This document shows, piece after piece, positions 34,612-38,123 of a DNA stretch of 64,000 nucleotides. A model generated the notes under the pieces. The model was not told the origin of the DNA. It saw nothing but the letters and a program-made list of their open reading frames with translations, and made no database searches. The stretch comes from Schmidtea nova. Lineage: Eukaryota. A program made the position numbers and the translations under genes. The stretch covers positions 405,790,001-405,854,000 of the forward strand of contig CM097882.1 in NCBI GenBank assembly GCA_044892505.1, given 5' to 3'. Numbering within the stretch: position 1 is the first letter of the stretch; each line of letters starts with the position of its first letter.

Positions 34612-35243
34612 AATATGCACAAAATCAATACGACAGCATACCACCCTCAAACCGATGGGTTAGTGGAAAGATTTAATGGGACATTATCAAGTAGACTAGC
34701 GGTTTTTGTGGGAAAAAATCAAAATGACTGGGATGAATACATAAGCCAGTGCACATACATACACAATATAACTCCTAACGAAGTGACAGGATGTTCACCA
34801 TATTAGTTAATGTTCTTAAGAGAACCAGCAAAGCCAATAGACACAGTTTTTGAACCACGAGGATCACAATACCTAGACGCGCCAGACTACGTTACACAAA
34901 TGCAGGAGAGACTGCAAGAAGTATATAAAGTCGCCAACTTAAAAGTAAAATTTAGACGAGAACGATATAAGGCCGATTATGATAAAACAAGCAAACCACA
35001 CAATTCAAGTATGATATAAGGTTAGACTTATGTCACCGCAAGTAGGGAAAGGAAAAACGACGTAACTAGCAAGACTTTTCAAAGGCATATGAGGTTGTAA
35101 AAGTAATCAATGAGAACCTACACCTGCAAAAACACAAAAATGGAGACCCAATGGAAGTACACGTGAATAGATGTAAATTAGCAGAATCAGAGGTTACTGT
35201 AGAAAACCCCCACAAATATAACTTAAGATCACAAAACAAGTTA
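34612..35243 (+). pseudogene. 3' half of a Gypsy integrase (second, unrelated element)
   Basis: TTAYHPQTDGLVERFNGTL..DWDEYI..Y.HN.T...TG.SPY; HVNRCK; KYNLRS. Stops and frameshifts present. Confidence 0.9.
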
Positions 35244-35986
35244 ATGATGTCAACAGTCTTTCTAACAATCATAGGATTAATCAATTCAACTGAGATAATA
35301 GAATACAACAACATGATGATCGAAATCTCGTTAGACGAGATTTAAGTCATTAATTTAATAAGGACACCAATAGAAGACATAGTCCTACAAACAATAAACG
35401 ATAAAAATCCAAGCTTCATGCGATAAACTGAAGACAGCAGAACAACTAATGAATTTGAAATATGAGATAGCATTAAATTCGTAAAATTATTACCTCACAC
35501 TCAGTACAAACTTTGTGCGCAAGGGAACAAAGACGGAAGTACGTCAATATGGAAATGTAAAAGAATTAAAACACAATGTATGTCTATAGAACAGTCAATT
35601 AAATTAAATTATACATTACCACAAGTAGTAAGATAACCACACAAAGTAGAACACTAGTAACCACGAGTATTAAACTAATAACAAACATTATGACGTCATC
35701 AGTAGAAATGATAAAAGATAAAAGCCCACCATCAACAAATAAATTAAGAATTCAAATTCATGAAGAGCATTTTATAGAAACAGCCCGATTCATAAGAAAT
35801 CCAATTAAATTACCAACGGGAAAACCAATAGTAATTCATAACTTGAACGAATTACTAACTTTTCAAACTAAAGAGAGGAAACCATTTTGGCCCTTTTATG
35901 TTATCTCATTGTCCATAATAGCACTAGCAATATTTGTTGCAATAACTAGCGTACAAATCTACAAAAATTACAAATGGAAAAGGTAA
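35244..35986 (+). pseudogene. env-position type I membrane protein: signal peptide, FN3-like motif, Thr-rich stalk, TM anchor
   Basis: MMSTVFLTIIGLINS; VKLLPHTQYKLCAQG (FN3 L.P.T.Y.h.V.A pattern, 35481-35525); SSKITTQSRTLVTTS; FWPFYVISLSIIALAIFVAITSVQIY-KNYKWKR. Three stops and one frameshift near 35625. Confidence 0.6.
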
Positions 35987-36468
35987 CGGTATCGGAGCCG
36001 ACTGGTCAGAAGTGTACCAGAACATTTCCATTTGGGCAAATACATACAAGGTGAATGTACAAGGTCCACACTGTCATAGGATAAATTGGTCAATAATATT
36101 TATTAAAATCACATATATCTGTATTTATAAAATAGTGTATAAGGTTAAACCTGAAATAAGCCTTCAACATAAATATTTACATTTTATTTTTAGAAAAATA
36201 ATCCACACGTCTATCAAACACCACAATCAAGTCAGTTTCATATCAAGCCCTCAATATAATCAATGTAATCAAACTAACTTCCAATCAAATCGCTTCAATC
36301 ACCAATCCAATTACAAGTCAATTCGTCAATTTTAGTCTCAATCGATATCTTACTTATACATCTGTCAATCAATACAGTAAACTCAAATTCAAATCAAACT
36401 TTTAATCTTACTGACAGCACACCCGTCAATAAATATCCCGATTCTTGTACAAATGTTCTCAAATAACA

Positions 36469-38123
36469 ATGCAATCAGATACAAATCCTTCTCGAACAAT
36501 TAATTATGTGGGTATGATCAATAAATACACTTTAAACATCTACAAAACCCTACAGAATAAAATATGCACCGATGGAAATCCAGTCACCATCAGAAGTTTC
36601 CCAAATCAAGTGTGCATTACCAATGAAATGAAAGCGGAAATAGAAGAAAGAGAATAACATATTATCAAATTTAACGAGACTCGACGAACAAAACTAAAAG
36701 ATTTATTCGGAACCTTTGAGAAATACCCTAATGTCGATAAAGCGGTAAGTGAAGGAAAAAGGGTACCACACAGAATATTATTCCACGTGAAAAAGACCGA
36801 AGTATCAGTTTGCCAACAGAAAATACCAATAATCACAACAAGCAATTATTCAATAATCAGAAAAACAATCAGAAATAAAAGAAGCATGTCAGACGATTTC
36901 AATCACCTTACAATTTAAATGAAAAACCTACCATGTACCGTAGCAATCGAGGTACTCTTTATCCTTTTAATACCAAATCCATTTATTGAATTGCCGTCAA
37001 TCTCTTCAAAGATTCAATACGGTCAGAGCTGGTTAGAGGAAAAAGTCTATTTCACGCATAACGAACTATCTCCAGTAGAAAAGTACCGACTAATTATATT
37101 CCTAGATGCAAAATTTGCAGTCGATAAAAACGACAACATGCGACCAGTGGAAATATGCATAAGAAACTACAAAGGTGCGGTATTATACAACAAAAGGATA
37201 ACTCCAAAAGCAAAGATAAAAATCTTTTGCACATAAAAAACGATGATCACTAAAGAAAATATCATTGGAAACGAAGATGAGTACCAGGCCCTAGTGGATA
37301 TCTGAAAACGGTTATCTGGAAAAATAATCATAAGATTCGACATGATAGATAAATTTAAAATGTTAAGCCTTGGTCTGGACAACATCGCAGGAATGAGAGA
37401 AATGGCCAGAGATAAATTTATGTGTTCAATTGTCAAAAATGTATTAATGAAATTAAGCTATCTAACTTAGATTATAAAGAGATCAAATACCATAAAAAAT
37501 GGTACAAAGACAAGAGGCTTAACGAAGCATTACTAGAAAGTGAACCATTCTCTGCCAGAAAAACGACAACAATATTAAAAGTAATATATGGAATAGTAGA
37601 GGACAAATGGGAACCAATAATAAAATGGAATTCAGCAGCTTCAACACCGATTCTAAATAATACACGAATAACAGGTGACATCGAAATGGAAAAAGATACA
37701 CATCAAATGCAAAACAAAAAATCATTCTTGGAAGAGTTAGAAGAAAGCAAAGACGAAAGTATAATCATGAATCAACAGTCCGACATGGAAGAGACAATCC
37801 AAAATAATAGTGACGACGAGTAAATGATCACAAAAGAGGAAACACCACCAGAATGGCAACCAATGGTTAAAAAGGAACCGCAAATAGTGCAAAGATATAA
37901 ATAAGGAAAGAAAATATGCGATTTAGATTCGGACGACAAATATTTATCCCTCGAAGAAGACGAACAAAAAGAGCACGAAAATGAAATGGAGAATGCAAAT
38001 ATCGAGATAAGATCGGAAGACGAGCTAGGATCTGAACCAGATGTAGAAATGGATATAGAAGAGGAAGAGGAGCCTAGTTTCATAATAGGTGCTGATCAGA
38101 AGGAGATAACCGAAAAGCAATAA
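36469..38123 (+). pseudogene. Decayed ORF of about 550 codons with an ISG20/REX4-like DEDDh exonuclease fold and an acidic tail
   Basis: IIFLDAKF..RPVEICIRNYKGAVLYNKRITP..T(stop)KTMIT..LSGKIIIRFDMIDKFKML..MREMA..FSARKTTTILKVIYGIVEDKWE is colinear with REX4/ISG20L2 ([64 protein letters not shown]). Confidence 0.7.

Follow-up and report, generated by a model that had tools for sequence, protein, structure and literature searches.

The window analysed here comprises 64,000 nucleotides of the Schmidtea nova assembly GCA_044892505.1 (contig CM097882.1, positions 405,790,001 to 405,854,000 of the forward strand), and all positions given below refer to it. From 34612 onwards it carries, on one strand, the end of an integrase, a small membrane protein ORF and, beyond a spacer, a longer ORF that we refer to as accessory (Table 1). 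All three coding parts are pseudogenised. As to the host taxon, the best GAPDH match, the schistosome enzyme 7jh0, scores no better than vertebrate ones (511.2 vs 511.0 bits), so that a flatworm host would be little more than a guess from this comparison.

Table 1. Features of the locus and of its second copy in the window (positions in nucleotides)
Feature	Position	Strand	Remark
Diverged second copy, a fragment	8020..8900	+	last 32+ accessory-ORF codons; weakly similar 3' flank
Hairpin-like terminus of a different element	34376..34611	.	truncates integrase at 34612
C-terminal third of Ty3/Gypsy-type integrase	34612..35243	+	end of DDE core and GPY/F-type tail
Type I membrane protein ORF, env position	35244..35986	+	same frame as integrase tail
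Signal-like start	35244-35300	+	moderately hydrophobic, mean hydropathy 1.57 at 35244
Possible FN3-like domain	~35290-35585	+	sub-threshold lead only
Ser/Thr stalk	~35603-35720	+	40% Ser/Thr at 35603-35692
TM helix	35897-35953	+	hydropathy 2.45; then short basic tail
Internal non-coding spacer, not an LTR	35987..36468	+	between membrane ORF and accessory ORF
Accessory ORF, ~636 codons	36469..38383	+	starts at ATG 36469
2OG-Fe(II) oxygenase/AlkB-type double-stranded beta-helix domain	36493..36972	+	residues 9-168
ISG20/REX4-type DEDDh exonuclease domain	37090..37615	+	fold and profile similarity
Catalytic positions D-K-K-F-T	37105, 37111, 37351, 37548, 37563	+	family alignment
Acidic low-complexity tail	37626..38120	+	29% D+E over 165 residues
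Small conserved C-terminal domain, no known family	38124..38383	+	54% identity with residues 399-450 of P0008
Solo-LTR-like insertion of another family in 3' region	38421..39408	-	orientation by eye
Probable continuation of element 3' region, up to assembly gap	39409..40233	+	weak colinear similarity to second-copy flank

Integrase tail, membrane protein and element boundaries

The integrase tail is interrupted by three stops and two frame changes, and when read across frames it shows the GPY/F-like tail of a Gypsy-type DDE integrase. A weak match to rve_3 (E 0.0023) was all that Pfam returned for pieces of the window. In a protein search E<=1e-10 was reached by 363 of 512 candidates, of which the top 120 were Gypsy-type integrases or pols (33-44% identity), which bears out the Gypsy integrase C-terminus recognised in an earlier note made from the sequence alone.

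Everything upstream of 34612 is missing from the element, the truncating terminus belonging to ends that we take to be Polinton-like. With pol queries, no RT or gag of the integrase-bearing element was found in the 64-kb window, and the only RT lies in a separate neighbour (26066-27448). No candidate LTR has a partner within the window, and the 3' region is broken by an insertion and an assembly gap. The 10-nt inverted ends of this insertion match at 9 of 10 positions and its 4-nt flanks at three of four. The segment beyond it scores 161 against the flank of the second copy (vs 123+-14), and 2 of 200 local shuffles score as much. A possible small hydrophobic ORF there (~39630-39770, with a counterpart at ~8290-8455) was dropped because the DNA alignment does not preserve its frame. 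An Rfam scan of 32000-41000 gave no match, and a bacterial promoter scan was disregarded, the locus being from an animal.

The transposases of Ginger1 share up to 40% identity with Gypsy integrases and carry the GPY/F motif (available portion of PMC2836005), and no RT was seen for the window copy, so the unit might be a Ginger1-like DNA transposon with a Gypsy-like integrase, no RT and cargo genes. We hold this to be highly improbable, as the integrase tail is followed by a membrane protein and not by OTU or Ulp1, the best integrase matches are mostly RT-bearing pols, and Ginger1 elements total 2.6-7 kb. Terminal inverted repeats of the Ginger1 type (40-270 bp, with CCGG/CCGT target duplication) were not seen in the window, from which the left end is missing.

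No stop separates the integrase tail from the membrane ORF, and the two share one frame. The latter has about 246 codons and three Cys, with three stops and one frame change (near 35600-35635). Of the signal peptide, FN3-like domain, Thr-rich stalk and TM helix read there previously, the signal-like start, the Ser/Thr stretch and the helix stand. The FN3 assignment is not established: there was no Pfam or PDB sequence match, the single-sequence fold of the ectodomain was uninformative (pLDDT 37), and the Atlas lead remained sub-threshold (0.81-0.89); its ten best named matches all belong to the fn3 clan. A Gemin5/WD40 identity was rejected, its matches being summed sub-threshold stretches. Neither a furin-type motif nor signs of an F- or gB-type fusogen were found in this ORF, and no relatives of it occurred among the fetched proteins. 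Among 118 integrase relatives, three show a hydrophobic signal in frame downstream of the integrase, and one of the three has a rhabdovirus-glycoprotein Pfam domain. In the window's element, pol would have extended in frame into a small env-position protein of type I topology, which is not long enough to be a known fusogen and probably mediated attachment or contact between cells.

The accessory protein and its family

The accessory ORF contains 8-10 stops and two frame changes (near 37416-37470 and 38160-38234). The relative P0008 is colinear with 36853-38368 across three frames, and the ORF therefore ends near 38383 and not at 38123. Of seven frame segments compared with shuffles, five were more open (P<=0.0016), unlike two short segments (P 0.14 and 0.46). 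The strand, DEDDh fold and acidic tail described in the earlier note hold, whereas its length of about 550 codons fell short and the N-terminal barrel was missed. The predicted protein would comprise, from its N-terminus, a barrel resembling oxygenases, a DEDDh domain of the ISG20 type, the acidic tail and the small C-terminal domain, for which Pfam gave no match. The last of these recurs in the window at 8045-8140 (59% amino-acid identity over the last 32+ codons), and the two copies differ by codon position 10/4/20, a third-position bias.

The structural model of the accessory protein (pLDDT 84.6, pTM 0.84) has at its N-terminus a double-stranded beta-helix with a flanking helix. This barrel aligns with 2OG-Fe(II) oxygenase and AlkB structures at Z 8.4-10.3 over 129-150 residues (prolyl-4-hydroxylase Z 10.3, rmsd 3.8, 150 aligned; ALKBH5 and ALKBH7 Z 8.6), plain cupins scoring lower (Z<=7.6, ~95-105 aligned). 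AlkB and the other 2OG-Fe(II) oxygenases bind iron through an HxD...H triad. The triad is absent from the barrel, and no HxD occurs in this part of the family alignment, from which, rather than from superposed coordinates, this was read. A single His column (33/36) and a single Glu column (29/38) are conserved in the barrel, and the window copy retains both (36784 and 36949). E. coli AlkB did not match the family profile A1 (probability 0.06), nor did any of 51 relatives give an oxygenase or cupin Pfam match. As modelled, the N-terminal domain is an oxygenase/AlkB-like barrel recognisable by structure only.

The second domain resembles ISG20 and ISG20L2 (PDB 1wlj, 7yw5) at Z 13.1-13.4 and ~20% identity, the ISG20L2 match (Z 13.4) having an rmsd of 2.5 over 125 aligned residues. 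The fold of the domain is DnaQ-like and gave E 9.1e-7 in Foldseek. The family profile matches ISG20L2 at E 4.7e-31, Pfam RNase_T is found at E<=0.01 in 27 of 51 relatives, and for the relative P0019 the Atlas gives RNase_T/ISG20/REX4 leads, all under 0.9. The closest structures are DEDDh and the intact relatives carry His in ExoIII. Catalysis by ISG20/REX4 DEDDh enzymes uses four carboxylates and a His (PMC9157404). The window has D-K-K-F-T instead of D-E-[D/E]-H-D, four of the five positions being substituted, which agrees with the catalytically dead ISG20/REX4-like exonuclease of the earlier note. Absent from that note is that most relatives look catalytically intact: the full set is present in 30 of 51, altered in 18, and not assessable in three truncated ones.

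Catalytic residues were lost in at least three separate events. The window copy falls in a 7-row clade (97/93) in which Lys stands at the ExoI Glu site in 7/7 and at the ExoII site in 6/7; this tree includes the catalytic columns, a choice that may draw dead members together, and P0054 was omitted as too short. Since the dead site is common to the clade, the alignment indicates that the catalytic state of the window lineage is inherited and not a product of decay. Alternatively, the lineage might be a functionless passenger, or a host gene that arose by domestication, and in either case take no part in counter-defence; the long branches of the altered members are compatible with that. We rate it as very improbable given that the repeated losses occurred with ORF, fold, barrel His and Glu kept (10 of the 13 altered rows with both positions filled have the His and an acidic residue), and given the third-position bias between the window copies.

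The 51 representatives form a family without a name. Word-index searches found nothing among 485 candidates with P0001 and, with alignment A1, four matches among 7998, all already known members; these few matches indicate that the method is insensitive here. Pattern matches in bacterial and archaeal genomes (89 and 108) gave no confirmed member, phage and plasmid records gave no family match, and PHROGs gave a generic exonuclease family only, for 4 of 9 proteins. No ECHC zinc motif was seen by eye in the family alignment. The two window copies, together with gene models in which P0007 is fused to a biotin-carboxylase sequence and P0008 to an unrelated sequence, are taken as signs of mobility.

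One element or several

The stretch 36013-36451 begins with TG and ends with CA within a 5-nt inverted repeat and has AATAAA at 36428, features of a decayed LTR that would divide the integrase-membrane unit and the accessory ORF between two elements. This is improbable, and the earlier caveat that a 3' LTR lies here was not borne out. The stretch occurs once in the window, is not preceded by a polypurine tract and is followed by neither a primer-binding site nor a target duplication, hallmarks that the neighbouring Gypsy does show; an ATG follows after just 17 nt. Comparison with the downstream sequence shows no similarity, equally high scores being reached by 51 and 49 of 200 shuffles. The spacer contains an initiator-like motif at 36232 and, at 36182-36193, a sequence resembling a splice acceptor, and is therefore, judging from these motifs, probably the leader of a separate transcript. 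The accessory gene would then be transcribed on its own, spliced or internally promoted.

Stop density is 1.4% in the integrase, 1.2% in the membrane ORF and 1.3-1.6% in the accessory ORF (chi-square p 0.92, from only 3, 3 and 8-10 stops), vs at most 4 stops in 1544 codons of the neighbouring Gypsy. Equal decay of the three coding parts favours one element. They also share a strand and an A-rich skew that is continuous across 34500-38400 and lower in the spacer. No intact copy of the element could be read. We infer that the three parts probably belong to one element, and the cargo-bearing Gypsy-type element proposed at the outset is supported.

Family members lie on contigs of 12.2-17.1 kb in 7 of the 28 clusters with contig data, and contigs of this size class encode P0019, P0034, P0043, P0046, P0047 and P0052; in the P0043 cluster (24 members), 12 of the 15 members listed are on contigs of 15.6-17.0 kb. 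None of the 28 clusters is on a contig >30 kb, vs about 66 of the best 120 integrase matches (counted by eye), a distribution that suits free viruses, or hosts that have not been sequenced, more than LTR elements integrated in the ordinary way. No integrase match lies on a 12-17 kb contig equal in size to a family member's; one coincidence of a 3128-nt contig was disregarded, as the source differs. The accessory ORF may originally have belonged to an independent element of 12-17 kb, viral or DNA-based (RNA virus, Polinton-like or other), and have reached its place beside the integrase through capture or nested insertion; the barrel-DEDDh protein would then be a viral counter-defence nuclease like arenavirus ExoN, which suppresses innate signalling (PMC7968707, in its accessible part). 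The Polinton-like end adjoining the integrase and the AlkB domains of plant RNA viruses among the weak fold matches point the same way. Against this, BFVD holds no close viral structure (best E 5.7e-5, generic exonucleases), the spacer has no junction signature, the coding parts have decayed equally, and unit-length contigs would also be expected from collapsed multi-copy LTR elements. We consider this origin unlikely, though the most serious of the alternatives.

On balance, we favour a single Ty3/Gypsy-type LTR retroelement, old and decayed, whose 3' part extends from 34612 to ~40200. Where env would be, it had an adhesin-like gene, and it also encoded a putative RNA-binding protein for counter-defence. 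For the accessory protein itself a counter-defence role is suggested tentatively. Most family members, with a complete DEDDh site, are predicted 3'-5' exonucleases on RNA ends. In the window lineage lysines replace the metal-binding carboxylates and the fold is kept, and the most likely role would be that of a non-cutting RNA 3'-end binder, either shielding element RNA from host nucleases and small-RNA trimming or serving as a decoy against them, the barrel perhaps being a reader of RNA or RNA marks.

Comparison with known systems

A close precedent is found in the bdelloid LTR retrotransposons Juno and Vesta, with a DEDDy exonuclease ORF3 downstream of pol (PMC5408684, in its available portion), as the earlier note had mentioned; the nematode Cer precedent that it also named was not found in a targeted literature search. 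Like the window's element, these are Gypsy-like with a 3'-5' exonuclease ORF after pol, a DEED motif variant is described as well, and other bdelloid families have small TM ORFs where env would be. The window domain differs in being of the DEDDh ISG20/REX4 type and not RNase D-type DEDDy with an ExoIII Tyr, and in being fused to a barrel, catalytically altered and accompanied by a membrane ORF. In the same portion, the authors leave the activity and role of ORF3 undemonstrated, and the inactive DEDD derivatives Maelstrom and EXD1 are said to retain RNA binding. Maelstrom and EXD1, which belong to piRNA pathways, and arenavirus NP ExoN serve here as working analogies only, in which the DEDD fold is reused for binding RNA or suppressing RNA defence.

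Phalaenopsis Gypsy elements encode an active AlkB m6A demethylase, likewise a 2OG-oxygenase-fold accessory ORF, expressed apart from gag-pol (PMC9289625). The orchid protein keeps its cofactor residues and is near host ALKBH5/9, whereas the window barrel is without the iron triad and fused to a nuclease domain; ISG20, ISG20L2 and REX4, in turn, lack the barrel. Errantiviruses and other env-bearing Gypsy elements (PMC13524379) and the giant Burro elements (PMC6431247) are similar in their env-position membrane protein and accessory cargo, respectively. Errantivirus env is a large F- or gB-type fusion glycoprotein with a furin site and a cysteine array; the window membrane ORF differs in its small size, its three Cys and the lack of furin-type sites or fusogen signs. 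The words 'fibronectin', 'DEDD' and 'AlkB' do not occur in the main text of PMC13524379, and the Burro domain list, in the part of PMC6431247 at hand, has no exonuclease. No description of an oxygenase-barrel and ISG20-type fusion in mobile elements was found in the mostly open literature; it may be annotated in Repbase.

More speculatively, and with less confidence than for the role of the single protein, the barrel-DEDDh protein might be the hallmark of a widespread, undescribed group of invertebrate elements, retrovirus-like or viral and 12-17 kb long, in which an FN3-like adhesin was captured in place of a fusogenic env. Their counter-defence protein of two domains, a pseudo-AlkB reader and an ISG20-like nuclease, would have turned into a pseudonuclease repeatedly, and a host antiviral enzyme type would in effect have been directed at the RNA defence of the host. 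The family bears on whether animal LTR elements encode their own RNA-silencing suppressors and on what their non-env accessory ORFs do. As natural members of both the active and the dead type exist, with at least three independent losses, nuclease vs binding function is directly testable on natural proteins.

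Extent, folds and catalytic site of the accessory ORF

Read with its stops as X, 36469–37467 matched human ISG20 (E 1.7e-4). The stretch 36919–37467, run as a full HMMER query against 1.84 billion representatives, recovered 51 relatives, the top two at 52% and 50% identity. Given that 36853–38368 is colinear with one family member (P0008) and that similarity to another (P0010) reaches back to 36490, we take the ORF to span 36469–38383; the earlier note had placed an exonuclease ORF on the correct strand but ended its interval too early, at 38123. No member of the family was found in the prokaryotic genomes, phages and plasmids searched.

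An alignment-based predicted model of the protein (pLDDT 84.6, pTM 0.84) comprises two domains. Residues 204–333 match ISG20L2 (Z 13.4, rmsd 2.5, 125 aligned) and also ISG20, which bears out the DEDDh fold proposed earlier. Residues 9–168 match 2OG-Fe(II) oxygenases, best of all prolyl-4-hydroxylase (Z 10.3, rmsd 3.8, 150 aligned), with ALKBH5 and ALKBH7 at Z 8.6 each and plain cupins scoring lower than the oxygenases. At the sequence level this barrel matches neither AlkB nor Pfam, and it lacks the HxD...H triad; its conserved positions are a His (33/36) and an acidic residue (35/38), both kept in the window copy. No close viral structure was found for the protein.

The catalytic set D-E-[D/E]-H-D is present in 30 of the 51 relatives and altered in 18, three being too short for a call. 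The window copy reads D-K-K-F-T, identical to family members P0007 and P0008, in agreement with the earlier reading of a dead exonuclease. In a tree of this copy and 50 relatives, with catalytic columns kept in and several long branches, it falls within a 7-row clade (support 97/93) sharing Lys at the ExoI Glu site; four changes to the altered state are required, of which three or more are dictated by branches with good support. Judged from sequence, the dead site is inherited by descent. The C-terminal domain recurs in the window as a second fragment (8045–8140), whose differences number 10/4/20 by codon position; since they are mainly third-position, the altered protein was under selection before this copy decayed.

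Integrase remnant, membrane protein and spacer

The plus strand from 34612 carries the end of a Gypsy-type integrase, 33–44% identical to the best 120 of 363 matches, mostly RT-bearing pols. It runs through all three frames with 3 stops, and the rest of pol is missing, because similarity ends leftward at the hairpin-like element end (see table). No stop separates the integrase tail from the membrane ORF, the two forming one continuous frame. An in-frame hydrophobic signal also follows the integrase in 3/118 integrase matches, and in one of these (P0076, its named source a soft coral) Pfam recognises a rhabdovirus-glycoprotein domain; the layout thus has precedent among integrase relatives. Two of the three proteins with this signal (P0072, P0076, P0079) have a long glycoprotein-like extension.

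The membrane ORF opens with a signal-like N-terminus, continues as a stalk rich in Ser/Thr and includes a well-defined TM helix. Its 10 best named matches in the Atlas search were all fn3-clan clusters, at scores (0.81–0.89) for which a third of shuffled proteins give the same pattern; Pfam, PDB sequence search and structure prediction returned nothing usable. Of the earlier description, the integrase and the signal, stalk and TM helix stand, and FN3 identity is a lead. The protein falls short of the size of known fusogens, and a putative role as attachment factor is more likely. Beyond its stop the frame stays open for 30 more codons (35987–36076) at higher GC, within chance (P 0.46); the cytoplasmic tail may once have been longer.

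TG...CA ends bound the spacer stretch 36013–36451, which had been suspected (as 36013–36450) of being the 3' LTR. No second copy was found within the window and no purine tract, primer site or target duplication at its borders, and its similarity to downstream sequence is no higher than that of shuffles: it is very probably not an LTR. A nearly intact Gypsy element of another family (see table), with LTR repeat cores of 104 nt at 98% identity, served as internal control for LTR hallmarks and decay. Within the spacer lie a single splice-acceptor-like site and a single initiator-like motif, which suggests a separate transcript for the accessory ORF.

One element or two

The window is AT-rich, comes from an animal, and contains assembly gaps as well as numerous mobile-element remnants.

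Other features of the window
Feature	Coordinates	Strand	Remarks
Younger Gypsy element, nearly intact	24680–29288	-	short LTRs, purine tract adjoining one LTR
ORF, 328 codons	within 32865–34611	-	without significant Pfam match
Tandem duplication, 272 nt	33900–34443		left of integrase remnant
Hairpin-like element end	34376–34611		directly left of integrase remnant
Solo-LTR-like insertion, 988 nt	38421–39408		without full partner within window
GAPDH ORF, intronless, uninterrupted frame	41497–42441	+	matches animal enzymes without pointing to one phylum

The ORF, duplication and hairpin end at 32865–34611 together resemble a Polinton/Maverick terminus. Pieces resembling hAT-like transposase, non-LTR reverse transcriptase and pogo/Tigger were seen by eye at 14246–15799, 30452–31923, 6098–7125 and 58550–58933. 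An inverted repeat at 62537–62965 (214 nt, 99% perfect, arms 1 nt apart) may reflect a misassembly or a foldback element.

Integrase, membrane ORF and accessory ORF share strand and a continuous A-rich skew, no junction was found between the integrase–membrane unit and the accessory ORF, and stop densities of the three parts are equal within small counts (1.4, 1.2 and 1.3–1.6%; p 0.92), the neighbouring younger Gypsy having at most 4 stops in 1544 codons. All this argues for one element. Beyond the solo-LTR-like insertion, which sits in the 3' region, there is weak resemblance to the second copy's flank (2/200 shuffles as high), and no 3' LTR was recognised up to the assembly gap at 40234. Similar T-rich stretches lie behind C/A-rich leaders in each copy (39630–39770 and 8290–8455); a putative short hydrophobic peptide, interrupted by a single stop, can be read from either of them.

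Contig sizes may speak against a single element. Among 28 accessory-ORF clusters with data (30/51 relatives looked up), 7 have members on 12.2–17.1 kb contigs, and in the P0043 cluster of this family 12/15 among members listed are on 15.6–17.0 kb contigs; none of the 28 reaches contigs >30 kb, versus about 66 of the best 120 integrase matches. This unit length suggests discrete mobile genomes; the contigs may represent LTR elements that were collapsed, or else free viruses.

Possible role and relation to known elements

According to PMC9157404, DEDD catalysis requires two metals bound by four carboxylates, so the window protein is predicted to be non-cutting and intact members to cut. DEDD folds are known to process RNA ends; in addition, the arenavirus ExoN suppresses innate signalling (PMC7968707), and inactive derivatives that act in piRNA pathways bind RNA (PMC5408684). 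For this reason a counter-defence role is favoured, as a possible but somewhat doubtful reading: the protein would act as a nuclease in some lineages and as an RNA-end shield or decoy in the window lineage, the oxygenase-like barrel serving as reader.

The element would work like known accessory-ORF Gypsy elements, but belongs to none of the named groups and is known here from a single decayed copy, in which the linkage is putative. Exonuclease cargo is recorded in LTR elements (bdelloid DEDDy, PMC5408684), as is AlkB cargo (orchid Gypsy, PMC9289625), and DnaQ-like domains are known accessories (PMC6338049); PMC6431247, PMC13524379, PMC8532177 and PMC2836005 were also compared. The available text of the literature searched describes no triad-less oxygenase barrel fused to an ISG20-type DEDDh with catalysis repeatedly lost and an adjoining in-frame adhesin-like protein.
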